DNA from: Harriotta raleighana
Lineage: Eukaryota
Direction of reading: 5' to 3'
NCBI GenBank assembly: GCA_050575255.1
Contig: JBNZDD010013408.1
Location: 128,599 to 192,598 of the forward strand
DNA length: 64,000 nt
Position numbers and translations under genes: made by a program. Every line of letters starts with the position of its first letter. Position 1 is the stretch's first letter. Shown here one piece after another: positions 3,016 through 31,990 of the stretch. Below the pieces are notes generated by a model. The model had not been told where the DNA came from and ran no database searches. It worked only from the letters and a program-made list of their open reading frames with translations.

Positions 3016-3236
3016 GTGTCGGAGAGCACTCAAGATCTGAATCATACAGTCGATATAAACCTCCAACAATTGGAGATAATATTCATCAAAAAACCGGATT
3101 ATCTGGAAAAAATACGAAAGTCAAAGGGCCGGCTTAATGAGCTTGTCAGACAACTAACCGAAATTCCATTTTGGGAAAACAGTGATCTATCTTTGGAAGA
3201 TCTAGCGGTCCGCACAGAGCTGTATGACTATTACAG
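3016..3236 (+). CDS. TTYH3: TTYH3 coding exon 4
   Basis: cttag|GTG...TACAG|gtatgc; 221 bp; VSESTQDLNHTVDINLQQLE...IPFWENSDLSLEDLAVRTELYDYYR; phase compatible with both neighbours. Confidence 0.95.
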
Positions 3237-5823: not shown

Positions 5824-5919
5824 GTGGCTGGGATACCTTGGTCTACTACTCTTCGATGTTCTTATCTGTCTTCTGGTGCTGTTTGGACTGATCCGAAATT
5901 CAAAAGGAATCCTTATTTG
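5824..5919 (+). CDS. TTYH3: TTYH3 coding exon 5 (transmembrane helix)
   Basis: tatag|G...TG|gtaagc; 96 bp; WLGYLGLLLFDVLICLLVLFGLIRNSKGILI. Confidence 0.96.
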
Positions 5920-7521: not shown

Positions 7522-7594
7522 TGCGGCTCTCCTGGGAGTGATGACTTTGATTATCAGTTGGACATCATTGGGTCTGGAACTAGCAGTTTCAGCG
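7522..7594 (+). CDS. TTYH3: TTYH3 coding exon 6
   Basis: catag|T...GCG|gtgagt; 73 bp; AALLGVMTLIISWTSLGLELAVSA. Confidence 0.95.
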
Positions 7595-8943: not shown

Positions 8944-9019
8944 GGTTCCAGTGATTTCTGCGTCTCTCCTGATGTATACGTATCCAAAATGGCAGAGGAG
9001 AATGAGGTTATTTTTAAAG
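8944..9019 (+). CDS. TTYH3: TTYH3 coding exon 7
   Basis: atcag|GGT...AAAG|gtaaag; 76 bp; GSSDFCVSPDVYVSKMAEENEVIFK, containing the Tweety SDFC motif. Confidence 0.96.
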
Positions 9020-12000: not shown

Positions 12001-12221
12001 CAGAATTTCATCATAATTGAATATTCCTATTTCCACATTTCTTTAAGCATTAAAGGCTTTTAATTGTGAATGAAATTTGTAATTTGGCAAAAATTTCCTG
12101 TGTTCATTCTGTAATAAGCTTAGAGCTGTTTGAATATGGAGTTTCAATTAAACTTTGTAGAAGTTGTTTACCAAATAATTGTGTGAAAGATTTAAAGGTT
12201 TTAATTTTGTTTTATTTGCAG

Positions 12222-12277
12222 AGACTCTGAATTACTACCTGGTTTGTAACGTTGAGTATCCTAATCCTTTTCAACAG
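12222..12277 (+). CDS. TTYH3: TTYH3 coding exon 8
   Basis: ttgcag|AG...CAG|gtgagt; 56 bp; ETLNYYLVCNVEYPNPFQQ. Confidence 0.95.
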
Positions 12278-12856
12278 GTGAGTCATTGCCACAGTGATAA
12301 TGTACACCTGAATTCCTCAGTTAGCTATAGGATGTCCATTGCTTTTTAGGAGATGTATTTTTATATAGAGGATTAATAGCTGTGTAAATGGGAGGACTGA
12401 TTGAGGCAGGATTCTATATTAGTTTTGAATGGATTGCTTTTCAAAGACGGTCACAAACACGATGGGCCAAAGGGCCTTTAATCATTCTAAGATAATTATT
12501 TTGAAGCAGAATATGATGTTGGATGTTCCATGTTCTTGGTGGCAAAGAACTATTTATTTCAATCTAATTGTTTAATGTCATTTGCAGATGGAGATGGCAG
12601 ATAACTGATAAATTTGGTTTAACCTGTCAGCTTCCTCTGTATGACAGAAGTTCTTTATCTTTACTTATTAATTTTCTTTAGTTTTAACCTTGACATATGG
12701 CAATATCCAGATCCATCTAATCACAGAATGAAACTAACTTTACAAACTTGAAATTGAATACCATACTGCTCCTGAGCCTTTGTTGTTGAGACAATAGTAA
12801 TTGTATCATTAAGCAAAAATATCTTAATCCCATTCATTTGTTTTTCTTTCCTGCAG

Positions 12857-12949
12857 AAACTTTCAAGTAGCCATAAAGCTCTGGTGGAGATGCAAGATCA
12901 TGTAACAGAGCTTCTGAAATCAGCTGTACAACAGTTCCCACACTCTAAA
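12857..12949 (+). CDS. TTYH3: TTYH3 coding exon 9
   Basis: ctgcag|AAA...AAA|gtaagt; 93 bp; KLSSSHKALVEMQDHVTELLKSAVQQFPHSK. Confidence 0.96.
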
Positions 12950-13368
12950 GTAAGTAGAGTAGGCCTGCCTTAACTCGTCACCCAAGGATTTTACTGTATA
13001 GTTTCTGAAATGCTATGATATTTACTGCTAAGTTTGTCAATGTTGCATTGAGAGAAATTGCTTTGTATACTAAACCAGACAAAACCAACTTGTCTGTTGA
13101 ATTTTCAGTATATGCAAAGGGTATAAGTCAGGGAACATTGAACACGAACAAGATAAACCTTTATAAACAAAGATAAGCTATGTAGAGTTTGGTTTGTTTC
13201 TTTGTTGTAGGGAAATTGTATTTGTACTGGGCATGCTGCTGTTCAGTATTAACGTTGTTTATCACCAGTTGCAATGGATTTCCCACATAAACCCCACTCA
13301 TGAGACTCACAACTGTGCTATGAATTCTCATTATCTGTGAAAATAATTACTGTTTGTATCATTAACAG

Positions 13369-13461
13369 GAGCATTTGGATCGGATTCAATTAGTATTAAA
13401 CACAACGGAGACCAGCTTGCAACAGTTGACAGCTTTGGTGGATTGTCGCAGTCTGCATATG
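13369..13461 (+). CDS. TTYH3: TTYH3 coding exon 10
   Basis: taacag|GAG...ATG|gtgagt; 93 bp; EHLDRIQLVLNTTETSLQQLTALVDCRSLHM. Confidence 0.96.
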
Positions 13462-14877
13462 GTGAGTGTTGGGAGTTGGTGTGAGATTGATGTGGAGTTC
13501 CTGCAATCATTTGATCTGCCAGTAATGAACCCTGAACCCTGAGACAATAGAATCAGTTTGGTGACACTCCCAAGTGAAAACAATTTAAATACCGTGTTAA
13601 AATTCTATAAAAGAATATGTTTCTGTGCCCTAACATATTTTGCATGTTCTAGACATTGACCATTTTTACATCAAATCAATTTTCATCCTCCAGCCCAAGC
13701 CGTTGCTTCTGACTTCACCGTTGACTTTACAATTGTATTAAATTAGCTTGACTAGCTTCTCAAAACAAGTGAACGCAATACTGAAAGGCTTCACGAGGAA
13801 TAAGAAAAAACGCAAACTGCAGCCAATTTACAGACAAATTAAGCCTCCCAATCCACTTTATGCCTTTTGGCCTGTCTGTTGTCAAAACGTTAATGTCCAA
13901 ACCCTATTCGCCGCAGGACCATAAGAAAATCAGTTCTCCATCAAATAATTTTAAAATTATGCATACACGAATGTTTTTAATGCGACTAAATTACATAGTG
14001 CTGCAAAAACACGAATGGTGTATGTATGAAAATAGCACTTGCTGTTCCTGTTGCACACTCCACTTAAAGCCTCAGGGCAACTCACTCACTGAGTATGCCC
14101 CAACGCTGACATCACAAGCTGAATAGATCTTGAAAGCTTATTGCCATGGGAATCACCACTTGCATTATGTAAGCGTTCAGTAAAATAAATCAGTCTATTA
14201 TTGTACGGGCGAAGATCTGCACAAATGACAAAAGCAAAGGTGGCATTGAGCATTGTGCTAAATCACTGTCAGTGTAGTTTTTTTATTAATACTTTTAAGA
14301 CGAGGAGTTTTTCATTTAGAAGAATTTTATCTGAAGTAAATAGGTCTTTCTGTCTGGCCGCATTCCTACTTTGGATTAGATGACAACTGTATTTTTTGGC
14401 TTTGTGAATAATCTTTCGCCCATTCCTTCTTTTCATTGATGTAAGCAAATATTCTTGGCTCATGGCACTTTACAGATTATATGACACTGGCACATGCATA
14501 TTTTGAAGATCTTGTCATTCTGCAACTTTTGGCAGCAGAGCAGTACTTATTTAGACTTGCTTCTAATTTGATTCTTGACTGATTTTAGACTTCATTTCTG
14601 TTCATGGGGAGTGAACAACCTACCCAAATATGTAACTTCAAGTAACTGTTTGGTAAACAGATTTTTAGGAAGCATTGCAAATGAAGAGGCTTTTTTTAAA
14701 AAAAAAAGCCCTTTTAGAGCAGAATTCTAGTAACCACGTTCCAATTTTCAATCGGCATTTCTGTATGTTGAAATGAATCAGATGCATTTAGGAATTTTAT
14801 TTCAGGAATTGGCAATGGTAATGACCTAGAAATATTTTCATTCTTCTCTTGAATGATATGATTACCAAAACACAGTA

Positions 14878-15505
14878 CAGTAAAAGCCCGTCTATCCAGC
14901 CTCCACGGGACCTGGCCAGTGCCGGTTAAACGGCTTTTCAGTTGAATGTTTTTAAAAAAAAAATAAAAAAAAATATTTTAACACATACATATTAATAATA
15001 GACTAAGTAATAACAGATAATAATGGAATTGTATGGGTATTTTATTGTAAATGTTGTACACTGTACCATATAAATAATACACTAAATACAGTAATAACAG
15101 AGATTGTAGTAACAGAATATTGTATGGCTACTTTATTGTAAATTTTGTACGCTACTATATAAATGATAGACGAAATGCACTAATATCAGGTACTATAATT
15201 ACAGAATATTGTATTAGTACTTTATTATTTATACTTAACTTCTGCAATGGCGGCCACCACGGGAGGAAAACAAAATGGCAGCGAGACTTTTAAACAAAAA
15301 ACAAGGCAGTAGCACTAAAGTCTTAGGCTCGACTTGCGGCCAACTGATATACCTACACAGTATTCGTGTGCGACCATCGATTCATTAAATGCGTCAATGC
15401 TATTCTGCCGGATAACTTTCGGTTTATCGAATCTGGACTTTTTTTGAGGTGCCGGTTCAACGAGTTTTCCGGTTCATCGAGTCATGGATGAATAGGTTTT
15501 TACTG
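14878..15505. mobile_element. Tc1/mariner superfamily (Tigger/pogo-like) non-autonomous DNA transposon (MITE)
   Basis: TA|cagtaaaagcccgtctatcc ... ggatgaataggtttttactg|TA: imperfect 20-bp TIRs with CAGT ends and TA target duplication; no transposase ORF. Confidence 0.8.
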
Positions 15506-16794
15506 TACATTATATTATTTTCCTCTCACATCTCCCTCTTGCAACAATCCCTCGCTTTACTGCTGAAAATGATATGTACTTTTTAATCTTAAGGATATGT
15601 CAGTAACTATCACTGGACAGATAGCTGAGTTGGCATGATGTAGAAACTCTCAGTAATTAAATTTGGAGGGTTTGCCAGTATTCCCACCAGTAAGAGCTTT
15701 GCTGGCCAACCTCTGGGGCCACTTCAAGCCTTTGGGACTTTCAAGAACAACAACAACTTCGATTTATATAGTGCCCTCCACGCCAGCAATTGAACCCTCC
15801 ACCCCGAACATTTGCATTAGTATAATAATAATTACATTTGATGTAGCGCCCTAACACATTGTTGAGACATCGCAAAGCACTTCATAGAATATACTGTAAA
15901 GTGTAGTGACTGTGTGTAGGTAGTGTGTTTCAGTTTTTTTCTTGATTAAATATTTGATTATGGTATAAATCAAGCAATATTCAATGAAGAAAATTAATTT
16001 TGCTGACCAACCACTTAGTTAGGGAGATGCGTTTAGTTTGAGGTGCCCATGAAACAAGAAATAATTTGATATACATAGGGATTTTGTAACTGACTTAGTG
16101 AGGGAGTGGCAATAGCAAAACGTACATCTTTATGTGATATTATTGATAAAATTGCACTGCAATCTTCACAGCGTAAAATGGTTCAATCTGAATTTGAACA
16201 GTTTCAATCTGAATTGGAACAGTTTGGAAATCTGATCAGAGTACTTCTATCCATGCTGACCTATTTTCTGACAATGAAATATAGATTATCACTCCACAAC
16301 CCCACATTGCTTCAGTCTTAATTAATCTCACTTGTGCATCAAGTGTGCGAATGTCATGGCTGTCGCCATTTGCTATGTCAAAGGAAAGGAATGGAACTCC
16401 CCCACCATCTCTCGAGTATATATTTGTGAAAGGACACAAGGGAATAACTTAAATTTTAAGATTCTTGTAATAGTCATATTTTAAAATAGCTGACCTTTCA
16501 ATGACATTTCTGGTAATCATCCTACAACATTCTATGCTTTTCTACTTGAGAGTTTATTTTACGTTTAATTATATCCATTGTATATTTATTCTTGTTCTTT
16601 TTTTCTTTTGTTTCTCAATTAAAACATTTTTTTTCTGCCATACGTGTCCATCCACATTTAATTGCTTTTGCCCTTTAAGGCACATTGTTTTACGTTGGTC
16701 TTTTTGCTGATTCTCTCATTTTCTTTTATGTTCCATTGTGTCTTGCTAATAATTCTGTACAGTATTCTCAAAATGTTCTTCTCACTTTTCACAG

Positions 16795-16934
16795 GATTAT
16801 GTGCAGGCTCTGACTGGATTGTGCTATGATGGCGTCGAGGGTCTAATATATTTGGTTCTGTTCTCCTTCGTAACTGCCCTAATGTTCAGTTCGATTGTAT
16901 GCAGTGTTCCTCACACCTGGCAACACAGCAAAAG
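16795..16934 (+). CDS. TTYH3: TTYH3 coding exon 11 (last transmembrane helix)
   Basis: tcacag|GAT...AAAAG|gtacat; 140 bp; DYVQALTGLCYDGVEGLIYLVLFSFVTALMFSSIVCSVPHTWQHSK(R). Confidence 0.96.
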
Positions 16935-16938
16935 GTAC

Positions 16939-17280
16939 ATAAAAAACCTGTACATTTGATTATAGTCTTCGAGACTTCTCAAAGCACTTCACAGAATATA
17001 CTGTACAGTGAATTGACTATGTTTTGTGGCCAAATGCGGCAGCGAATTGCACGCAGCAGTGTCCCACATACAGTGGTGGATTGAGTTATCAAATGGATCA
17101 TTACCTCCGGAAAAACGATCCACTAATCGACTAACAACCAGGTTCCTACTTACTGCTAGGTAAATAGAAGTGTGTGTAGTGTAAGGAAACTTCCCCAATG
17201 TTTTGCCCATCCTGGGAATCTAACCCAGGTCCTCTCGTTTGTGAGACGAGTGCTCTAACCACTAAGCTACAGAACTCCAC
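16939..17280 (-). mobile_element. SINE of the same family immediately after the exon 11 donor
   Basis: Tail remnant starts at about +5 of the intron; ctcaaagcacttcacagaatatactgt; head ...ctctaaccactaagctacagaactccac. Confidence 0.85.
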
Positions 17281-18435
17281 AATAAAATAAAATGAACCTC
17301 ATATTATGAGTTGTTTTATGCTGTGAAGTTAATGCATGACTCATTCTGTTGCAAGCAGCATAAAGTACAATTACCCTGCTGACAATGCAAATTCACTGCC
17401 TGGTGTGAAACTGAACTAGCTAAACAAGGCAGAAGTGAGTCAGCTGCTTTCTTTTCCTCTATCTAGATTACAGAGGAGGACACGGAGGGGCGAGATTCAA
17501 TTTTTCTCATTCTTGGTTGTGTTCCAGGGGTTTATCATAAATTGGTTTGGACGAAGAGGCCCTTTGACCCATCTGCTCTCACCCTCTAGAACACCCAGCC
17601 TACTTTTTCTCCTAGCGTTGCACCAAACTGATTTTTAAATGACTGAAACTATGATTAGAAGTTGGGTGAAAACCAATCCGACTGTTTCAAGGCTGTGTTT
17701 AATTTTCCTGGAATATCAAGAATACGTTTTTCAAGGCTTTTGCTTCGGAAACACAATCTTAAACATGTTCTGATTAAAAGGCTGGGAACAGACTGTGCAA
17801 AATAAAAGAACCTAATGCAAGCCGTAGTGCAAGGTTACAGCCTGTGTAGCACTGTCTTCTAGTGGCTGCTATTTGCCATTGCATTTTGTCAATTCCCACT
17901 AACGATTTTAGGTTCGATTAGTTTTACAGTTTACAACGATTTTTAAAAATTCCTCAATAGAACTACAGTATTTGCATATTTTTAAATCAGTGCAACATTT
18001 TGAAAGAGCCAGTTTGGAAACAAAAGTCGTGAAAATAAATTTGTTTAGTTTTTGACTGTTTCCTCATTTTTATCATGTTTCTGCATTTTGCACCCTTTCA
18101 CTTCACTGGATTTGGGTGAATGCAATCGTGGGGGAAACTGAAGGAACATGTTCTCGCAGTAGAAATAGTTCTCTCAGCCCCATGGGGAATGATAAATCAG
18201 TTGCTATCCTTACAGTAACACAGCGCCATGTAGACAACACCATGCTAATACTCCAGCACATTTTTGTTCAAGGTGAAACAGCAAAATTTACCAATTGAGG
18301 TGTTTCCTTATGGTCTTATCCCTTTGCTAAATTGGCAAGTGTCAGTACAGAATGCATTTGCTCAACTAAAGAGTTCTCTCCAGCTTATCCTAACGATGCC
18401 TGTTTTTTTTTTCTCTCTCCCTCCCATTTGTGAAG

Positions 18436-18618
18436 GGGTCACGGTGACGTCGATGGAGAGGAGGAAATTGGGACTGCACAGGGGAGCCGTCACCAGCATG
18501 ATAATCTGTACAGAGTGCACATGCCCAGCCTGTACAGCTGTGGGAGCAGTTTTGGCAGTGAAACCAGTATTCCTGCCGCAGCGCACACAGTCAGCAATGC
18601 TCCTGTCACGGAGTATAT
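18436..18618 (+). CDS. TTYH3: TTYH3 coding exon 12
   Basis: gtgaag|G...TATAT|gtaagc; 183 bp; GHGDVDGEEEIGTAQGSRHQHDNLYRVHMPSLYSCGSSFGSETSIPAAAHTVSNAPVTEY. Confidence 0.95.
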
Positions 18619-18789
18619 GTAAGCAACCGCAACGCGTTCGTTCTTCATTTGTTTTCTTTTTCCCCCCGCACTGGCAATAGATGACCAACCAAAAACAAGA
18701 CTAAAAATTAGAGCTATTAAAAAAAAATGACATGTTCAAAATTGGGTGCTTTTGGTTGTGATATTCTGATTTGTAGTGTAGCCTCAAAT

Positions 18790-18960
18790 CATCGCAGAAA
18801 CAGGAGGAGGCCATTCAGCCACTCGAGTCTGTTTTGCCATTCTATAAGATCATAACTGATCTGTACCTCAAGTCCAATTACCCGTCCTTGCCCATATCCC
18901 TTCATATCCTGACCTCACAAATATCCACCTCAGTCTTGAAAATGTGAATGGATGCAGCAT
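18790..18960 (-). mobile_element. CR1 LINE 3' end fragment
   Basis: aaacaggaggaggccattcagcc...gccattctataagatcataactgatctgtacc is the reverse complement of the CR1 3' UTR seen elsewhere in the window. Confidence 0.75.
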
Positions 18961-19201
18961 CTTTTAAGTGATTGCAGACTGTAGCTTAACTTTGGTGTGT
19001 GAGCAGTGAGCATCAAAAACTATGTTTAATTTCATTCCCAGGATTGTATAATACAAACTGGCTTAATTCAGTAATTCATGTAGTTTAATAAAAATGTATA
19101 GCTAAGGAGTTCTAGTTCTGTTTCGATCTAAAGCTATCCCAGTAGCACCATCTTCCAAAGACTTGCACTGATCTTAAAGTTTCTCCCTCTAAATTATACA
19201 G

Positions 19202-19277
19202 GAGCCAGAATACAACTTATCAGAACCCTCGGTGTGAGAATACACCTCTGATCGGCAGAGAATCTCCTCCCCCTTCT
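19202..19277 (+). CDS. TTYH3: TTYH3 coding exon 13
   Basis: atacag|G...TCT|gtaagt; 76 bp; (M)SQNTTYQNPRCENTPLIGRESPPPS. Confidence 0.96.
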
Positions 19278-22093
19278 GTAAGTTAAATCTTTTTACTGTT
19301 TGTTTTTATGCAGAATATTGATTTGACTACAATACACGCACCTCTTTTGGAAAACCATGCGTTTGTGTTCCTATGGTCATGATCAATAAGGGTCATTATA
19401 TCTGAAATGTTTTTTCTCGAATGAATCCTACATCAGTTAGCTGGCAGCTATGAGTTTTCGTTTGCTTGTCCTGCTGCTGGGAATTTTATGCAGACCTTCA
19501 GATTTTTGAAGACCATGGTGATGTTGTCTTCTGGTGAAGGGATCATTTATATTGAAACACATCTCTGAACTGTGCTGGCTGAGGATATTCTGACAGCACC
19601 ATCTCTAAAGAAGAACCAAACGAGTACCATTCACCACTCTCATAAAAATATGAATCTTAGCAGAACAAACACAAAACTACCAGAGTTTTGTTATACAGAA
19701 ACAGTGTCTGGTCCACCATAATCTTGATGTAATGTGTGGTCTCCTTCTGTAGAAGAACCACATAAAACTGTCTTCATCACACACCACACTACAAAGAACT
19801 CTTTGTATGGCTCCAAATGACCTCTGTATGGAGGGGTCTAGTGTATGCTGGTAAGTGTTGTATTATTTTATTGCCCACAACTTTTGATACAGATTCTGTT
19901 TACATTTTTACGTCTTCCGTGTACTGAGACATTAAATACTATAAGCATTATTTCTACTTAATCCTTTGAGTACAGTGAAGTATTTAGCACCATTCTAATG
20001 GTTAAATTCAAGGCGATTAGAAAGCTTCAGCTCAGAAGCCACTTGCACATCTCTGGGATAATTAAATAGAGTTTCTTTTAAATACTGAAATGTACAGCTA
20101 CTACACCTCATTCCAAGACTACTGTTGTTAATGTTGAGCTGAAGGAACTCAAGTTATATGCAAAAGGGAAACCTTTCTAAATTCAAGGAATGGTTTTAAA
20201 CAATGTAATTGGATTTGTTCTTAATGTTGATATTTTGTTTGCAGAATATGATTCCTGAACAATCATTCTTTATGTGCGGTTGCTATCAACTTTGTTGTAA
20301 CATGTAACTCAATTGAGCTGTCATGCATTTGTTTTAAAACAACATAAAATGATTTAAATGTGCTAACTATCTAAAATAATAATAATGTTTTTTTTTAACC
20401 TCTGGAAACTTATGAATCAAACCATAAAACAATGAAAGACTGAGAAATGTTTAAACCATTTGTTGTCAGTCCCACTTTGCTAGCCAAACAAAAAATTATT
20501 TTGAGATAACCAGATGGTGGTAAAGGGTTAAATCATGTCTGAATGTCTTTAATGAAGAGCTGCTGTGTTGTGTATTCCTTGCATTTTGTAATGGGTTAAC
20601 CTGACAATGTGGGAACCAAAATCCATCTTTTCTGATTCGGGTTTGCACACTTCAAAACTACCTATGGCATTGGCATTTTTGGATATGAGAACTGCTTTGT
20701 ACTTGCAATGAAAATCAGGACATTGCATTTTTAAGACACTTCATTTTATTTTAGCATTTTATAATTGATTTTCCTCTTCATCTTCTAGTTTATTTTAGAC
20801 TCCTGTTCGATCTGCTTTCCCCCCACCCCCCCCCATTATCTCTGCCTATCGCTATTTTATTTTTTTACTTTGACCCATCTTATTGTTTCTGTCCATATTT
20901 TGCACGATTTCCCAGGACTCTGCGAGTTCATAGATACCGTGTAGTACATAAGTCTTCAATTGAGCTGTCATGCATTTGTTGAAATGACTTCCAGTAAGTG
21001 TCTCTGCGGCTCTCTGTATTGATCGTGATTCGTTTGAAAAAGCAGGCGAGGCACTGCTGAGCGACATTTACTGCCTGTGGGAAATGTCATGGTTACTTTT
21101 AAAGTGTTGTTTCTTATTTTGCTCAGTTCGAGACACTGGTATAATGTATTATTGGGGAATATTGAGACTCTATTATCCAGCCTCTTAAGTTTAAATTGGC
21201 AGTTTCCTTCCCACACTGTGACGTTAACTTACTTTATATTAAAAAAAAGCCTAACAGCATTGTGATTCATGAGCTTGTGCAGGTCAATGTGAAGAAAATA
21301 TTCTATACCTACAAATATGTATGGGTCCTGGTGGTTTAAAAAATTGTCCAGTTGCAAGTGATGTGTAGAAAGAAGCCATAATTAATCCCTTTAAACACCC
21401 AAACCTGGGTCAGTTTGAAGTTCCTTTAGTTTCCAGATACTCAATGTTATTGCTTTGGAACAAAATTGTTTGTGCATTTTAATATGGTAAAAAGCACTCT
21501 GGTTTAATATAAAGAGTTAAGATTACGAGCAGATATTTGAAAAGACGGGAGCACAAAACCGTGTTTCTTTCAATGGACATTTTCAGCAAAAAAACTTACT
21601 TTTGTGGACGGATTTTACACTGGGAAAGAAGCAAAAACTGTTCTCTTCATTATTTTGCAATCTTGAAAATAAAAATGGAATGTACGGAACTTAATAATGA
21701 ATTTTTAGGTGCATTTTTGTTTTATTAAACAGAAATATTTGACCTTGAATTATTTTCAGCTGTGGGGCATAATTCTGCAGTCCTCAAAGGGTTAAACTCC
21801 GTTTCATTAGCTGTTAACAAGTCATACACTTATAATGTTAACAAATCAGAGAAAATAAAAAATTATATTTTCGAAAGTGGGTGGGTTTAATATGATGAGT
21901 GTTTTAATGGTGTACATTGTTCTATATCAAAATATTTCTAGAGATTGTGTTGCTCCTAATTGTTCCTGTGTTCCCTCCTTCTGTCCTGGGATTGTCCCTG
22001 GGTGTTTTTGTGGGTTGTGCTCCCCTTTACACTTGCTTGCACTGGATTTATCTTTGAGGCTGCACTCTATTTCTCTCTCTTGCAATGCCACAG

Positions 22094-22180
22094 CTGTATT
22101 TGGCTGCTCTGGACAGTGGCAGTCATCTGAGCTGGCAGCCAAAGACCTGCGACAGTGCGAGAACGAATTCTTACTGGTAA
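22094..22180 (+). CDS. TTYH3: TTYH3 candidate alternative C-terminal exon (coding part; exon may extend to a donor after 22202)
   Basis: tttctctctcttgcaatgccacag| acceptor, phase 0 after exon 13; LYLAALDSGSHLSWQPKTCDSARTNSYW*; resembles a mammalian TTYH3 isoform tail as I recall it (not verified). Confidence 0.8.
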   Translation: MYLAALDSGSHLSWQPKTCDSARTNSYW

Positions 22181-25100
22181 AGAAGGCAGCAAACCAGAAC
22201 AGGTACTGAAACATGGCTTTATATCCCATTCCCTACTGCTTTAAGTTTCTTAAAGTATTCACTCCTACTAAAGAGCACAGTATTCCGAATAATACCCTTT
22301 CCCCACTGTCTGATTCTCCTAAAATAGACACTATCCTCTTAAACAGCACAGCATTTTGAATTGCTGCTAGAACATGGCATTAAACTGCATTCCATGCTAT
22401 TTCTTATTCCTTAAGAGTATTTTCTGAATAAACGTGGTTTAATTTCTCCATTGCTTCGAGCTCCCTAAATCCTGCACCATGTTAAATAGCAAAATACCTG
22501 AATATTACAGTATTCTAGCATTGAAAAATGATGTTCCATATTCTACCAGTGATGTCACAACTTATTGTACGTGAATACGTACTGTACCATGGAACCATAG
22601 ATAAGTTGATCCTAATCTGGGATGTGCTATTTCAAAATGCCGATTAGACCAGTGCAAATAGTTGCACTGACAAGTACTTTTTAAGTACATTCTTTCACTG
22701 AAATAAGTTTATACAATAGTTTGAGAAGTGGCCAAATTAGTGTTATGCAATTATCAAACTTTGTCGTTTTGATGTTTGAGGTTTCAAACTATCTCGACTG
22801 CTCAAATGTTTTCAATGTAATTTCAATATTTCTTGTAATAAATCCCATAGAAAAAGTATTACAATTACAGTACTAGCCTTTTCATATGAATTTTTGAAAG
22901 AAAAAATGTGACGAATGGCATTTCCACTATGTTATTTTAAAGCTGGATTTTTAAAATGGCACATTTTTGAAGGTACAATTATTGTGACATCCCTGTTATT
23001 TATCTATTGTGTTCAGTCCTTAGATAAATGCATCCAGCTGAACACAATAATCACCCTTTTCAATGGTCACTAAAGCATGGCTTTAATACTTTGAGCACCA
23101 CAGTCACCTTTTTGCACCAGAATGAACAATATTTGATTTGATTTTTTTTTCAGCTTGCTGAAAGAATGCTCTGAAACATTCTGTGCTTCCATATGCTTTT
23201 CTGATTGTTATGGCAAGAAACATCATATTTATTGCTATTTCATGATGGAAAATAGATGTGTATTTTCAAAGCTGTATTACAAATTCAGTACATTTTAAAG
23301 ATTCATCTCCCATTAGCAATGCTTTAGATTTCCTCAGATAAATGCTGTGCTGAAATTCATAGTGTTTCAATTAGTTCAGAAAATGTGCTTTTGATCACTA
23401 ATTACCATGTATCTTATTATTAAACATACTCGTTTATACAATAAGTCATGCCATTGCATTTTTCTGATATTTTCTTCATCAGTGAGAATATTGGTTCAGT
23501 TTGCAATATTTACAGATCGTTTTGTTGCCTTTATTGCAACTTCTGATTTGCAAATATTCAACTGCAAAATCAGCAGCCGGCAAATTCCTACCATGAATCT
23601 ACATTTATATTTTACTGTAATAAGGTAACTTCAGGAAGTTATTTTCCTGTATTTAGTTGTGAAATATGAATACAGGATGGACATTGTTTGTGTGTTTAGA
23701 CTTTGGTGTGGATGTGAGATTAAAGCTACAGTTGTTTTGGTTACATTTTGAGTTCATACACTGTTTAGTCTTTAACACAACCCTTTAACATTCTGCTGAT
23801 TCCGTAAGTGGACCTTTTTTTTCCTTCCTGTGATCTGGAATCTTGTTCTGTATCTGTGCTCTTAACGTCTCAGAAGATTTGTGATACAGGAAATAAGGCT
23901 TTACTGCTACCAGAAATACAAATAACCTGTGCTCTATTGTCTCTCATAAGGCAGGTATCAGTCATGATCAATTAGAATAGTGGACATGCTTGAGGGGCTA
24001 AACGGCCTAATCTTGTTTCTATTGTGCCATGGATTGGTAGATAGATTGTGTATAAAAGTATGTTTTATTTACAGGAAACATTTTCAGGAAGCACTTAAAG
24101 GCAAGCGATCAAACATAGTTCAGCAACATTCAATTTTATAACTTCTCCAAAGGTTCAGTTGTCCAGATCAAACTCGTAGTCCTAAATTAGGTGTCTTTCA
24201 AAATCTTCAGCGGTTGCTTGGCCAACTCGGAGTCACCGTAACCAGCTTTTATTGAATTGGTGGTGAATCCTGGAGTTCACTTGGAACAAAACAGAAATGG
24301 GATCCTGTTTTATGTTTCTTGTTTATAAACCTCATAGGATGTTATTATTCAGTTCAAACTACAGAGTCAATTTGGTGGAATCCAATTAACAAACCTTCAA
24401 GTCAATCAGTGTAATTTCAGATCCTGTGCAAGGCAGTTTAAATACAAAGCAATCCACTTTGTCCTAAAGTCCTTCAACAAACATTTCCTGGATAAATTAA
24501 TGTCTGGTTACACTTTTATAGGAATCTTTACAAAGTGTTATGCCTTTACTGTTTTCATTCTGAAACATTCCTTCTAATTTTTTTTACAATAAGATTAATT
24601 ATCTGTGCACTTTAATTAAACTATAACATATTGGGAGATAAAATTTCAAAGGTGGGGTGAATTTCTAAAGTGTGTGTATGGTTATATTCATTAATCTTAG
24701 CTTTTTAATGTCAATTTGATTTTACCCATCGTAAACTGGACCTACAGGTAAACCAGTAAACAAACAAAATGGAAAAATCTTAAGAGCTGAACAGTTTGGC
24801 TCTTCATTTACTGTAACTGTTTACTGATATGGCAGCTGGTCTGTTGGGTAATTCAAAACCTTTGTCGTGAATAGGTGTTGTGTTGAATGGTGTGCAGGGT
24901 TAGGCTGGCTGCTTAAGGACTTTCCTCTACCTTCCTATTTTTCAAGCTACAGTATTAGCAACTTGAGAAAATTAAATTAAAAAATTACCGAAATGTATAT
25001 CTACAACAACTTGCATTTATTTAGTGGGTAATGTCTTGAAGCGCTTCATGGGGATTCAATGGCAGTGGTACTATTGAATGCATCCTGCTTCCATTTATCT

Positions 25101-27048
25101 ATGATAGATCCCACTGAGTGACTAATGAGATTAAGGCATAAAACTGCCAATCTAGACTGCAATACTGATGAAGAATAGTCAGGCTGACGGGGAAAGCCAT
25201 CTTAATCAACAAAGTTGATGCTATTGAAACACTGAAATTCTTGAGATGCACCCATAGGGATTGAGGACAGACAACAGGTCTGCTTGGAGCTACTTCCAAA
25301 GCTGCTGGTCGAGAACATAACTGCTGTGAAGATCAGAGTCCCAAGAGAAATGATGTTTATGTCTGTGCATCTCCAAAAGAAATTAATCTTTGCCTCTGTA
25401 ATGACAGAAATGCACTGTTTGGTAGAATTGTTTTTTAAAGTCTGTAGTTCAGCATATCTGCAAAAGACTGGCACTGGTTTCATGTATTGTGAATGTTGTG
25501 AACCTCTGTCCTTCTGAACCTTCTTTAACTGATCCAAAGATAAACTTTGAATTGTGTTGGTCCTTTTAAGTGTTGGTGTTGGGGGGTGGGGGTGGGGGGT
25601 GAGGGCGGAATGTGGGGAGAGAGGGAGAGAGACTCATTGGGAATGTTCAGCAATAAAATTCCAAATGGCTTCTGGGACTGTCAAATTTGCCCCAATCACT
25701 AAACTGAGATAATCTCATTTAGACTTTTAAAGTGCCTGTGCTTGAGAAATGGATTTGATCTGTTGGTAATTGCTTATTGCTTATTGCTTGAGATGCATAC
25801 ATTGCTTGCTGAATTGAATGGTTTCATTTATTCTGCACTCACTTATTCTACCGACTTTATTGCATTAAAACTATAAAATTTAACATTTAGAAAGAATACA
25901 AGATAATCTCATTGCTGATACAGGTAATCTCATTCAAACTCCTCGGTGATTGCCCAACAGTACTGCAAGTGTTGTTTCTGATTTATGTTTTGAGTATTGA
26001 ATGTGAAATTCAGACGCTTTTGTTTAGAGCAAAAAGTAACATCCATATTTATTAATAATAATCCTTGCATTTAATATAGCACCTTGTCAGGTCATTGAGA
26101 CGCCTCAAAGCGGTCACTGGACCTATTGTAAAGTGTAGTGACTTCTTTTGTGTGCAAAACATGGCTCAATTGTTATTCGATCAAAATATCTCCCGCAATA
26201 ATCTTGTCACCTACCTAGGTCAAATTGAACATATGTAGAGATCACACTAGTCTTCTCTTCAGGTGCAGATAACACCATTTATTTGATACCATTCACCTTG
26301 TGTCTGTTCTTTGGTTTCTTCAGTTTAAAAAAATATATTTTCAGAAAATGTGCTACAGTGTTCTTTCTCTCTTGTTTTAGGCACCTCAAACTGCACTGGT
26401 CTAGCACCTTTCACGTCAGGAGGACGGCCCAAGGTGCTGGGCTACATACAGCACATGCTAGACTAGTTATCGTTGGTCAGGCATACAGTCCAAAGTTATT
26501 TTATTCCAGTGGCATCTCCTCTTTGCATGAAACTAACAGCAAACTTTTATTTTAATAAAAGCTTTCACTTCCACCTTTTAATTTCCTGTTTCTGTAACCA
26601 CTCCACTTTTGCATTTAATGTTCCCTCTTCCTTTTAAGGAGATTCCAGATTTTTTTTCTTTTCCAAAAAAGGCTGCCCTTTGCAGCTATTGATTCCGACA
26701 CCTCGTGCACATTGGTTGCATCAGTCAGCAACTTCAAAAATGTTCTGAGTGCATTGTAGAGCATTTACAAGAGGTGCTTTTATCTTTTAGATAAAATAGT
26801 TGAGATACTTTTAGTCTACAGACCTTATAAAGTCAATCCAATTTTTTTGGGGGGTGGGGGTTGCAAGAGGAGAAGAATAGTTTTGCGTCTGACTGGAAAG
26901 TGTGGTTTTGATTCATGCAATTGTAAAACATGTCAAAGGGAGATTTGAAGTTATTTTGTGTTTGAATAAAGACAAACCAGCTTATTCAATAATGCAATGC
27001 GCATTTTAACATTTTTACTATTAATCTTTTGTCTTCCTTTTCCCACAG

Positions 27049-27114
27049 TACTCGAACAGCATGAGAGCCAAATACCTCGCCACAAACAGGCCTGAGACCA
27101 ACACTGACCACTGA
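27049..27114 (+). CDS. TTYH3: TTYH3 terminal coding exon 14
   Basis: ttcccacag|TAC; YSNSMRAKYLATNRPETNTDH*, TGA at 27112-27114; completes the SPPPS|Y PY motif. Confidence 0.95.
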   Translation, partial: YSNSMRAKYLATNRPETNTDH

Positions 27115-30100
27115 GCCTGCAGAGGATGGGGATGGTGGGGTGGGGGGGGAGGGGGCAAGCTGGGTGGATGGGAGAGAGAGAGAGTACTGGAACCACTTTT
27201 GCATGTCTAATGCCACTAACAATACAGTTACTAACCTAAGGAGAACTGTATTACTCTTAATGGTTGTTGTACAGCTGTACAGTAATAGGCAGACTACCAC
27301 TGGAATGAACAAATTCTGCTGAAGTAAATTGCCTGCGGATTTTCCTACCCTTTGCCACAGTTCCGTCATTCAGTTTGCTTCAGTTCAAAAATGTTGTTAA
27401 TTCCTAGATTGTAATCGGGATGTCAAGATATATCTGTGTACCAGTATATATCACAATGAGAAAGAGATCACACTACAATTGTATTGGCTGTTTTACACCC
27501 ATTGTAATAATTGTAAAATGCAATAATCATTGTAGTTTAATAAAAATATGATTCAGATGAACAGTCTTATTTATCTGGAAGAGAGGCCAACCTGCCAATC
27601 AGTTGTGATACTGTTTGATGTTTCATGACATCCCTAGAACTGTTATTACTAGAAATGTGAAGACTGAAAGGGATTTTCTAAATTTACGATAAAGCCTACA
27701 GTCTTGTTTTAAGTTTTTTCCATTGTTGTAATACCTTTAACCACTTTTAAACTGAATATAATGGAGGGTTCGTTTCCTGTGGTAAGGGGAAAAGATAATA
27801 CAGGAAAGGGGTTCATGTAAATATCTGAGGGAAAATGAAAATCCACTCAGAAAACCAGCCAACTCTTGATTAGTTAACTGCTAAGTAAACCTGATGATCT
27901 TTGGAAATAATTGCTGATTTCTGGATTGGAAACTGTTCCTCAACTTAGATCTGAGAATATTTATGTACTGCCGGGTGCATGTTTCCGACACCACTCTTTT
28001 AACTAAACGTTTTACTGTATTTCACACGAGCCTGCAACGCCATTTGTTTTTAATATATGAAGAAAATGCATGTTATTACAAATCATTCCTGAGGTTTTCC
28101 TATAGTGTTGCTTATATTTCTCCCCTTCCCCCAATTTAAAATAATTTCTTGTCCTGAAATTGAGTTAATGGACCTTTTTGTTCAGTTTCAGCAGCTCAGT
28201 AGATTTTTAAAAAAAACGTATAATTGGCCCAAAGTTTTTTTTTATTGTAAGCATATCAAAATCTCTATCCACTTGAAGAGTAAGGATCTTTGTAAATTAA
28301 CAACGAGGCAGGTCATTCTCGTACTCAGAATGGGCGGAAATATCTGCTTACTGCTGTATTCTTCAAAATATTCTGAACTGTTTTGTCACCAAGGTGCAGA
28401 AATTTATTGCAGCCTTCAAAAAAAGATTAATACTGGCCTATAAAGCATGGATAACCAACAGTGACTTTTATTGTTGCTTTACATTTTAAGTGGGTGAAAA
28501 TTGCAGTTGTGTTTATTTTATATAAAAAAGCCCCATTTGGATTCAAGAACATTCCTCTCTCCAGCGGGCGTTTTATTTAACGTAACATCAAATTAAAAGG
28601 GCGTTTGGGATTGACATGCTCAAATTTTAGTTGATATCTTTCAGACTCCCGATGTGTTGCCTTTCTGTCTGTACATTATCGTAATTAAGTGCTCAATAAT
28701 AACTGGCCTGCCACTGCCATCACTTCAACCTCGATGAACAAACAATGTATATTAAAAAAAGGGAATCCTGCCCTTTCTACCCTGAAAAAATTTTTATAGC
28801 ACTGAAAACATGAAAACATCCTCTCAATGTCAAATTCTTGTCCTACCTTGACCTAGCCTCGGATACTTATACTTATAAATACTTGCATTTGATATAACGT
28901 CTTACAGAGATGTCTCTGAAGCAACCATAGCCCCACAAAATAATAATATAATAATAATCATTACATTTATATGGCGCTTTCTACATCATATCGACGTCCC
29001 AAAGCGCTTTGTACATTCCTAGGAATCTTGATTCTGCCTCACAAACTACTTTGAAAAATACTCTTGCTTTTCACTGATAACATGATTTGCACTAGAATAC
29101 CAGAACTTGCAGCAAAAGTATTTTGGCAATAAATTGATGCAAAACAGAACTGTTTTTGACCGCACCATGATTGGATTTAATACCATTTTTTTTGTGTGTG
29201 TGTGTGATTGTGTGTGTGATCCAAATACTTCTAAGTGCTTCTTGTTGTTTTTCTGGATATTATTTTTTATTGTAGTGGAATCCCTTTGATTCATGACCCG
29301 CAATGCAACGTCTCTATAAAAGAGATTGTTTATTGTTCTGTTTGTTGGAGCTCAGATGGTTCTAGAAACTGTCTTATCATCGATCCCCCCACCCAGTAAG
29401 GGGCCCTCACACTATACATTTTGTTTTGTCGCATTTTTTTTCCTTCAGTTTATATGTAATTAAACCTTAAACTGCTGGCAGGTCCCCACAGGTTTATGGT
29501 TATCTGAGCCAACTGTTCTATATTTTCAGCACCAACTCGACACTGGAAAACAAAATACAAGTACAGTAACATTAATGAACTGAGTCCAGCATTACCGTAG
29601 CTTTCTTGCTGAAATACTGATGCCAGTCCACTAAAATAAATTCCCCCCCCCCACCCCCAAAAAAGTAACTTTTCTCTCACTTTGTTTTTATTTTTTCTGA
29701 CCAGTTTTAAATTTTTTAAGGTATGCCATTCACTGTTTATTCCGAGTCTCCACCATTTATTCTTCTCCACTGGAAGACGAGAGAAAGACTTTTTTTTATT
29801 GTTGTTTAAAAAAAATAGTGTTTCTATTAGCTTGGCATTCGTTCATTCGCCCAAAACTGGCCAAAGTGTTTGTTTGCAGCCAAACAAAACCTTTATCCAT
29901 TGACATGAAAGCTGCTTTGAAGCATCAATGACTTTGAGACTAGGCAAGCGAACTTAGGGTTAAATCACAACCTGATGTGTGATCAAACAAGTCATTCAAA
30001 TAATATGCATGTGGAAGGGACACTTTCTCAAGTTAATTTGGCGAAACATATCTATAAAGGTTTGACTTGAAACATATTGAAACACGAGACTCCAAATCGT

Positions 30101-31990
30101 ACTGTAGAAACGGAGTTAGATCCTGCCACTGGGCAGGTAGGATATCTCCACAAACATCTTTAAGGGTAAAATAATGATTAATTGTAGTCAGACCCAATTT
30201 TTAATCATATAAATATATATTATTAAAAAAAACTTAGCTGTAGCTTGGAAGGTGGGGTGGGAGATACATGGTGCTATTCCGTAGACTTATGTGCACTCTT
30301 TTTGAGTGGGTGCTGACAGGGTTTATAAATAAAAAGTCCTAGGTGGATAGAACCTCCATCCGTCAGCTGAACAAGATATTCTCCACTTCAGTTCAGTGAC
30401 CGCTGAATCCGATCAGGTCTCTCGGCAAGGCCACGAGACGATTCGGTCGGCCGAACGGTGGAATTTGCGAGCAGTTTCACTTGTTTTCAGAAGCACAAAC
30501 TTGCTTTAATTCCTTGAGCGTTAGTGGGTTTATCCAGCGTGGCATGTATGTCTTTTGCACCTTGGAAAGCACACATCCATTCCAATCCAACCTCGAAAAA
30601 ATGTGAATTCTGGAGAGGCTGTGTAAAATTTAACACAGCCTCGGACTTTGTGGTGTTTGTAATATTATTAGCTGTGAATTCCCTAAGCATTACTACACAT
30701 TTAACTAGGGAGTGTTGTACGCTATGCATTTAATTCTTAATCTCTTGCGAGTGTGACCTCTCTAGTACCTTTGGATGTTTGAACTTCTAAACCAGCAATT
30801 TTTGCTTAATAATACATTACAAATGAGTCATTATTATTTTGTGACTGGGGTTAATGTGAATTTAACAGCAAAACTAAATGGCCAAACAAATAAAAATAAA
30901 TAGTGGGGGGTGTTTATCCCTGTTTAGATGTATTGTCTCCACGTCATTTGGTCTTTTGACTTAATCAAGGGTTTTTGTTCATTCTGCGTTTTTTTTAAAT
31001 TGAACTAAAACTAAATAGTCATTTTGTATAATAATTTTGTTGTTGGGAGTCTGTTTTGAATGTGGAACCGGCTGGTTTAAGTGAGTACAGAAATGAAAAC
31101 CCAACTCCTTAATGCCAAGTATAACGCGGAAAAGTTTATTGATATTAATAGGTTTCAAGAGGAATACTTGCGAAAGGCGCTATCCCAAGTTCTGCTGAAA
31201 ATACAAATAACCTTATTTGGGTATGTGTCTTAAACTGCCCATTTTCGTGAAGCACCCTTTATAGTGTATCCCGAGACTAAACAGAATTTATTTTTACTTA
31301 AGAGAACCCGTTTCTTTCGAATAAGAAACGTCGCTTCAATTTATCAGTTTTTCTACTTAAAGTTAAATGAACCTAAATCACCCGTTTACAATTTTAACAC
31401 GTTAGCTAAGGTGTGACTGGACACATCTGAAATAATTTGGAAAATGCTGTCAAGTGAACTTTTTTTTTAGTCAGGTGTAATCTTTTTACTTATATTGTGA
31501 AACCAGTTATTCTGTTGTGTTAGTGAGACAATCCTGTGTTTTAACTAAAATATATTATTTGTAGAAAAGATATATCCACAAACCAATATCTCTTGCACGA
31601 GCAATGTGCATTGAATGGTAAAATGTAATTTGCCTTTAATGTACTTTTTAACCATTTCGACGAATTTATTGTGTAACATACTGCTTCAGTTATTACTTGT
31701 ATGTAATCTAAAACTAGTAATTTTACTGTTGTAGTAGTAGCATAGTATTGTGAAGTCTGTTTCCAAAACAGCAATTTTTATTTTTTAAGAAAAATTCTGT
31801 GACTTAAACGATTGCTCCTTTTATTTTTGCTAAAATTTGCTGTAACTCTTAAATGGGTTTATAACGTGTTTTAAAACTTCTTTCCAACAAGTAAAATGTT
31901 GTAAATGTCAAACCTGTGGTTTTCATGAGCTTGATTGAACTTAAATGTTTTCAAAGTGAAATTAATAAAGTTTGTTGGACTTACCAACAG
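27115..31990 (+). other. TTYH3: Probable long (~4.9 kb) TTYH3 3' UTR
   Basis: AU-rich, largely repeat-poor sequence after the stop, ending at AATAAA 31964-31969 just before the repeat-dense region; the end point is inferred. Confidence 0.55.
31964..31969 (+). terminator. Candidate distal polyadenylation signal of TTYH3
   Basis: AATAAA followed by a U/GU-rich stretch (tttgtcctaatttcttcttggt); more proximal AATAAA hexamers exist near 27539, 30328 and 30888. Confidence 0.55.

Follow-up and report, generated by a model that had tools for sequence, protein, structure and literature searches.

In this work we focused on a stretch of 64,000 nucleotides of Harriotta raleighana DNA (hereafter the window), the first 28 kb of which hold, on the + strand, the 3' part of a TTYH3 gene whose first ~97 codons precede the window. 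The last intron of this gene interrupts the PPxY (PY) motif of the encoded protein, and within this intron lies an optional exon of 109 nucleotides (22094-22202). Its inclusion exchanges the canonical C-terminus for another tail and removes the sole PPxY of the cytoplasmic tail. The same tail is found in jawed vertebrates from sharks to human.

The TTYH3 locus and its optional exon

Coding exons were placed by tblastn with two elasmobranch proteins as queries, of horn shark (P0001) and Mobula (P0002) type, and every exon so placed is bounded by AG/GT. The near-identical horn shark homologue carries the Tweety domain (PF04906, 3e-180) and the matches are named TTYH3; matches of the exon at 3016 in the PDB are to TTYH3 chains only. 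By this homology the gene is the Tweety family member TTYH3. Exon by exon, the protein of Callorhinchus milii is the nearest relative without being identical (e.g. 57/72 residues vs 43-47/72 for three elasmobranchs).

The penultimate constitutive exon, called exon 13 here, encodes the PPS of the PY motif in its last letters (19269-19277), and the Tyr is the first codon of the terminal exon, at 27049. The coding part of the latter is identical at 17/21 and 19/21 positions to two chondrichthyan canonical tails. Between the two exons, the acceptor CACAG/22094 opens the frame LYLAALDSGSHLSWQPKTCDSARTNSYW, which ends at a TAA (22178-22180) 22 nucleotides from the donor. When 22094-22202 is included, the PY tail gives way to 28 residues, the Tyr is shifted by one place and the PPxY is gone. 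A sequence-only reading of the window had described this arrangement beforehand, namely a PY motif split as SPPPS/Y by the last intron and destroyed by splicing to 22094, a stop close enough to the donor after 22202 to escape nonsense-mediated decay (NMD), and a UC tract with proximal UGC at the acceptor. The phase 0 end of exon 13 at 19277, the Tyr codon at 27049, the translation and the position of the stop bear it out, the geometry fits NMD escape, and both acceptor elements are present (UGC at -13 and -8).

Splicing was followed in contigs of two runs of one study, X1 and X2, taken as RNA and aligned to 12100-30500 of the window; tissue labels are absent from both runs, and the depth of contigs gives neither inclusion levels nor a ranking of gene parts. 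Four constitutive joints are present in both runs and the coding exons differ by ~4-7% from the window, and we therefore regard X1 and X2 as spliced RNA of a relative. In X2 a GT..AG joint connects 19277 to 22094. This is the junction whose absence was to speak against the sequence-only reading, and it was found in one of the two runs, in a single contig. The shorter side of the joint has 30 letters, one below the bridge threshold of 31; the constitutive joints of the same table have shorter sides of mostly 25-35 letters, one having 92. Exon 13 is thus spliced to 22094 in the relative. A 109-letter contig of X2 spans exactly 22094-22202 with 1 difference, and its end precisely at the predicted donor suggests that the assembly branches there. 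The same contig crosses another possible donor at 22176 (CTG/GTAAAG, 6/9 consensus matches) unbroken, and this candidate was rejected. We infer the onward splice from 22202 to the terminal exon at 27049; neither this joint nor 19277-27049 is among the joints listed, and divergence or filtering may have removed the contigs of the last exon.

In X1 the optional exon is uncovered, but so is 19232 in exon 13, and this run is uninformative on tissue specificity. The depths of the joint and of the exon-13 contig in X2 (371 to 1530) are not an estimate of inclusion. Three listed pieces account for 94.9 of the 95.3 mean depth in the bin 21924-22537, a weak hint that there is no room for abundant read-through. 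Among the listed pieces, and post hoc, X2 differs from the window at 1/109 letters of the optional exon vs 18/323 in two constitutive exons (p 0.055), and at 15/378 letters (30 of them exonic) of the upstream flank vs 51/661 in three other intron pieces (Fisher p 0.017). The features of the locus are collected in Table 1.

Table 1. Coordinates, in the window, of the TTYH3 features discussed in the text.
Feature	Position	Strand	Basis
Ten upstream coding exons of TTYH3	820-931, 3016-3236, 5824-5919, 7522-7594, 8944-9019, 12222-12277, 12857-12949, 13369-13461, 16795-16934, 18436-18618	+	tblastn, AG/GT bounds
Exon 13 (penultimate constitutive exon), 76 nucleotides, phase 0 end at SPPPS, GTAAGT donor	19202-19277	+	tblastn, translation
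ENTPLI, putative dileucine-type match to [DE]xxxL[LI], five residues before the PY motif, kept in both isoforms	19236-19253	+	pattern match
Second candidate cassette exon, 98 nucleotides, TGTAG/...CTG/GTAAGT, open frame	19753-19850	+	tail of Callorhinchus milii isoform X2
Upstream intron flank, conserved more than other intron pieces; UG-rich part at ~21900-22020	21744-22093	+	X2 comparison
Acceptor of the optional exon, 9-nucleotide UC run, UGC at -13 and -8, CAG	22060-22093	+	sequence
Optional cassette exon, 109 nucleotides: 28 codons, stop, 22 nucleotides of 3' untranslated region (UTR)	22094-22202	+	translation, X2 contigs, 65 homologous tails
Donor GTACTG (CAG/GTACTG)	22203-22208	+	6/9 consensus matches, as in 7/11 constitutive donors; X2 contig end at 22202
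Two possible poly(A) signals if the exon is terminal: ATTAAA 22379, AATAAA 22427	22379-22432	+	sequence only
Terminal exon, coding part, starting with TAC (Tyr) after CCACAG	27049-27114	+	translation, homologous tails

Conservation of the alternative tail

A 40-residue in-frame query compared with 5.8 billion proteins retrieved NCBI isoforms of two elasmobranchs (E 3.6e-10 and 6.3e-8), whose tails are identical to that of the window at 27/28 and 25/28 residues. The last 62 residues of the horn shark isoform were then used as a query and matched 370 proteins. The best 120 of these divide into 65 with the alternative tail, 28 with the canonical PY tail and 27 with other ends, many of them resembling read-through into an intron; as the query favours the alternative tail, 65/120 is not a frequency. 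Counts are of cluster representatives, and clades were assigned by hand from the source names. Membership of the alternative class required an early Tyr and a central Trp, so that the invariance of these two residues is built in; inspection by eye of the 27 other tails gave no clear missed member, one record (P0096) being doubtful.

The 65 listed alternative tails come from 2 elasmobranchs, 31 ray-finned fish, 3 amphibians, 4 squamates, 4 birds, 1 monotreme, 5 marsupials and 15 placental mammals. The exon is therefore conserved across jawed vertebrates, as the sequence-only reading had supposed from a human isoform, and that isoform exists (XP_016868144.1, P0017). In nine comparisons, identity to the tail of the window was 27/28 for the horn shark, 19-20/28 for tetrapods and 11-16/28 for ray-finned fish; a primate tail equal to the human one (P0009) stands at 19/28. 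In the alignment, differences between tails, down to an identity of 11/28, take the form of gaps of whole residues and of conservative substitutions, which points to selection on the peptide itself. The C-terminal [ST]-x-W is kept in 54/65 listed tails, even across the 2-residue insertion of the cartilaginous fish.

The remaining 11 of the 65, from pig, peccary, goat, cattle, dolphin, armadillo, two bats, puma and two opossum models, have either lost the last four residues or extended them. Records with an end altered in some mammals are P0021, P0024, P0025, P0027-P0031, P0064 and P0238: the tail is shortened by four residues in the artiodactyl, dolphin and armadillo records, and the stop is lost and the tail extended in the two bats and the puma.

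No [LP]PxY lies in the last 130 residues of any of the 65 alternative-tail proteins, one of which has an LPDY far upstream, at residue 340. A search with the canonical end matched 393 proteins, of which 120 were listed and 96 counted (94 new ones, P0069 and P0070); in this set, whose ranking favours the canonical tail, PPPSY is present in 96/96. By database records the included and the skipped form coexist within species, both tails being on record in human, baboon, pig, opossum, Tasmanian devil and platypus. In the PDB, the three TTYH3 sequences all have the PY tail.

The exon would date, by the clades represented, to the jawed-vertebrate ancestor or before. A search restricted to representatives at 50% was uninformative on jawless fish and invertebrates, its 48 matches being mostly single-exon fragments. 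The tail of the 22094 exon is absent from the Callorhinchus milii records that the two tail searches listed. An origin by tandem duplication of the terminal exon was considered and rejected, no homology between the two tails being detectable in five within-clade pairs (shuffle p 0.06-0.63). Pfam gave zero matches for the peptide of this exon or for that of the 19753 exon described below. A DSGxxxS resembling a beta-TrCP site, present in the tail of the window, was likewise set aside, since only 9/65 tails share it.

The exon is also represented in a catalogue of mouse cassette exons (PMC5989265, Dataset S9); papers are cited here by PMC identifier. It lists two Ttyh3 events, an exon of 76 nucleotides, the length of exon 13, and one of 101 nucleotides before the next acceptor (CA-78339-25581-26840-26941-28500). 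By position and length the latter is probably the orthologue of 22094-22202. This is supported by a vampire-bat model lacking the stop, because its 33 codons followed by the last exon in a shifted frame correspond to 101 nucleotides. If the 101-nucleotide exon encodes 26 residues, the mouse stop would lie ~20 nucleotides before the junction, and the layout expected to escape NMD looks conserved.

Function of the exon and competing explanations

Nedd4-2 ubiquitinates or regulates TTYH2 and TTYH3, according to a review (PMC8273234) and a proteome-array study (PMC2824488). Skipping of 22094-22202 would leave PPSY in place, and inclusion would take it away and add a conserved tail of 26-28 residues. 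A loss of direct binding to WW domains is likely for the included form, and its resistance to Nedd4-2 is plausible; it would likely no longer be bound and ubiquitinated directly by ligases of the Nedd4 family, and would undergo less ubiquitin-driven endolysosomal sorting. The conservation of the new tail goes much further than the removal of a motif requires, and the tail therefore probably has a partner of its own, which the included protein would gain. Class I PDZ ligands have [ST] at -2 and an aliphatic residue or Phe at the C-terminus, and 0/65 alternative tails match this pattern, the [ST] at -2 fitting and the Trp at 0 not. As NMD is triggered by stops more than 50-55 nucleotides upstream of the last junction, the included mRNA, with its stop 22 nucleotides from it, is predicted to escape decay. 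We regard as fairly probable the combined reading of an ancient optional exon that switches the PY motif off, with likely escape from Nedd4 and a new partner for the tail.

Several points weigh against this reading. The joint from exon 13 to 22094 rests on one contig with a short side of 30 letters, from one run of a relative. He et al. (2008) reportedly found that binding follows the PY motif, the PY mutant having been tested for TTYH2 and not for TTYH3. TTYH proteins are dimers with a disordered cytoplasmic tail, as stated in the literature, and a mixed TTYH3 dimer would still present one PY. The pattern [DE]xxxL[LI] is a dileucine sorting signal; a match to it is kept in both isoforms and occurs in 65/65 listed alternative-tail proteins, a region in which the query favoured likeness, and loss of the PY would not necessarily make the protein more stable at the surface. 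The last four residues of the tail are altered in 11/65 records. The mouse entry bears the tag [1/34], which we ourselves read as rare inclusion. Finally, the supplements of a protein-level splicing study gave no TTYH3 row, and thus no peptide support.

As to its regulation, the sequence-only reading had taken the exon for a neural one, repressed by PTBP1 and activated by SRRM4. The acceptor at 22094 does have the longest UC run (9 nucleotides) and the most UCUY/CUCU matches (8) of the 13 acceptors of the gene, with two UGC within 20 nucleotides, and the joint occurs in one of two samples. However, UGC is found in 2/12 constitutive acceptors too, two of these have 5-6 UC matches and one an 8-nucleotide UC run, and the PTB motif count of the 250-nucleotide flank is matched by 9% of background windows. 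With 109 nucleotides the exon is no microexon. In Dataset S9 (PMC5989265) the probable mouse orthologue scored 0 as a target of Ptbp, Rbfox, Nova and Mbnl, and the 2883 cortex exons with developmental regulation do not include it, in a catalogue whose authors call their own sensitivity estimates conservative. TTYH3 is likewise absent from a list of 314 SRRM4-induced exons (change of at least 25), a comparison that covers HEK293 cells. Both catalogues are incomplete. The absence of the exon as a target from the two leaves the neural claim unsupported rather than refuted, and we consider it doubtful.

Other sources gave little on regulation. Besides the supplements of PMC5989265 (12/15 files) and PMC7935315 (12/19 files), which were also searched for TTYH3, those of PMC4387716 (5/6 files), PMC11195221 (1 file), PMC12358039 (9 files), PMC5630039 (11 figure files and Table S4, of 27) and PMC7561204 (12 files) contained no Ttyh3 row. 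A human VastDB event of 85 nucleotides (HsaEX0068285) was left aside, since it could not be matched to the 22094 exon. Within 250 nucleotides of the exon there are no motifs for Rbfox or QKI. The UG-rich stretch at 21900-22020 has 10 TGT[GT] in 250 nucleotides, a number reached by 2.5% of 518 background windows and weak as evidence, this being one of 8 motifs tried; it might bind proteins of CELF or TDP-43 type.

The loss of the PY motif might also be incidental, the exon being kept for its new tail alone and Nedd4 ligases gaining access to the isoform by way of adaptors or of its dimer partner. A bare stop would suffice to remove the motif, but from sharks to human the tail has been preserved over 26-28 residues, with 54/65 tails ending in [ST]-x-W; the dimeric state of TTYH proteins would provide the partner, and the title of PMC13654932 mentions an adaptor route for Nedd4-2. 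We think this unlikely nevertheless, given that PPPSY is present in all 96 counted canonical tails and that the swap removes PPxY in all 65. Moreover, it is the extreme C-terminus that is lost or extended in several mammalian lineages (11/65), and the PY-less state persists in them.

If the exon instead ended the transcript at a poly(A) site of its own, the 3' UTR would change as well as the tail. The two hexamers at 22379 and 22427, the lack of a 22202-27049 joint among the rows listed and three mammalian models that read through the donor (P0021, P0064, P0238) agree with this. These models end in ...SDRY, which fits translation of the same donor letters as in CAG/GTACTG. Against it, the X2 contig halts exactly at 22202, the mouse catalogue gives a cassette exon (PMC5989265) and the vampire-bat model runs on into the last exon. 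We consider this explanation improbable as the main use of the exon, the hexamers leaving minor use as a terminal exon open.

Still less probable is a poison exon that tunes the TTYH3 level through NMD, its peptide being a by-product. High nucleotide conservation is typical of poison exons, and the optional exon has an in-frame stop upstream of a junction and few nucleotide differences in X2 (1/109 vs 18/323, p 0.055). The stop, however, lies 22 nucleotides from the last junction here, assuming no intron in the downstream 3' UTR, and ~20 in mouse if 26 residues are encoded there, where a distance above 50-55 would be expected, and the peptide itself is kept, varying by whole-residue gaps and conservative substitutions. 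Cryptic splice noise or a chance frame, for which one could cite the 196 YAG sites of the intron and the 27/120 listed proteins with unrelated tails, many of them read-through-like, has practically no chance, as it is refuted by the match at E 3.6e-10, the exact junction and the conservation of the same tail in eight vertebrate groups.

Further features of the window

The last TTYH3 intron contains a second candidate cassette exon. Positions 19753-19848 encode a peptide that shares 27/32 residues with the tail of TTYH3 isoform X2 from Callorhinchus milii (P0060; E 9e-23 in a search of the window), and in 19753-19850 the AG and the open frame are kept and the donor at 19850 has 8/9 consensus matches. 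Inclusion would remove the PPxY, and the protein would end, like the Callorhinchus milii record, in the last exon read in a shifted frame. This tail is in no other of the 120 listed records. No junction of it was found in X1 or X2, where the bin depth (0.29 and 0, respectively) is uninformative either way. The element may be a chimaera-specific exon or conserved noise.

Elsewhere in the gene, the Mobula isoform (P0002) is one residue longer at the junction of exons 12 and 13 (window 19199-19204, +) than the horn shark protein and that of the window, which suggests a tandem acceptor at this junction in rays. Two short tandem repeats lie in TTYH3 intron sequence, at 15028-15226 (89-nucleotide unit, 2.2 copies) and 16182-16225 (21-nucleotide unit, 2.1 copies), and short repeats at about 15900, 17000-17270, 18800-18960 and 26050-26090 matched thousands of foreign contigs. 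Outside TTYH3, an intronless 439-codon class A peptide-receptor G protein-coupled receptor is encoded at 57758-59077 (-). Its best PDB matches are the NPFF, kisspeptin, CCK-B and orexin receptors with similar scores (E about 1e-31 to 1e-30), and therefore no clear human orthologue stands out among the solved structures. The reading frame at 49163-49618 (+) is like the end of a long interspersed nuclear element (LINE), presumably of CR1 type.

Relation to known systems and significance

The exon is already in databases, namely in RefSeq isoforms and probably, for mouse, in the cassette catalogue. As in the window, the tail of the annotated TTYH3 isoforms (human XP_016868144.1, NCBI 'isoform X1/X2' of many vertebrates) follows SPPPS and the stop lies just before the last junction; the tail of the cartilaginous fish is two residues longer and the exon has 109 nucleotides, not 101 as in the mouse entry. 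We found no paper on this exon or on a PY-less TTYH3 by title or abstract, in a search with thin coverage of subscription journals, nor a description of its consequence for the PY motif. The passages on Nedd4-2 control of TTYH2 and TTYH3 available to us (PMC8273234, PMC2824488) concern the same protein and ligase with the canonical PY tail, and these passages do not mention isoforms.

The type of switch is known from ERBB4, in which, according to PMC4303208, splicing of the CYT-1/CYT-2 forms decides on a PPxY site for the Nedd4-family ligase Itch, the PPxY form being more ubiquitinated. In both genes alternative splicing sets the presence of a PPxY. The logic is opposite, however: in ERBB4 inclusion adds an internal in-frame piece of 16 residues carrying the PPxY, whereas in TTYH3 an intron interrupts the motif, and including the exon abolishes it and exchanges the entire C-terminus. 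With exons activated by SRRM4 and repressed by PTBP1, the 22094 exon shares the UC-rich tract, the UGC near the acceptor and the conserved flank; it differs from them in its 109 nucleotides with a stop codon and in that neither of the catalogues consulted names it as a target.

According to PMC8361169 and PMC12328215, the current view of TTYH proteins is that they handle lipids and do not conduct chloride, and TTYH2 acts in endosomes together with APOE. PMC12328215, of 2025, leaves open the role of the TTYH2 cytoplasmic tail and the partners of TTYH3, and the 2021 review (PMC8273234) does the same for the question of whether the splice variants of tweety genes differ in expression or have a function. 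A tentative extension of the preferred reading, which we would not call probable, is that the PPS/Y intron is a routing switch as old as the jawed vertebrates: inclusion would drop the Nedd4 handle, install a hitherto unrecognised motif for binding that ends in [ST]-x-W-COOH and reroute TTYH3 to a different compartment in certain cell types, and so set where a probable lipid-transfer protein works, and chimaeras may have independently added a second PY-removing exon to this intron. The existing annotation and the ERBB4 precedent limit the surprise of the finding. A natural PY-less TTYH3, conserved from cartilaginous fish to human, nonetheless provides a ready pair of constructs with which the role of the tail in the location and turnover of the protein can be addressed.

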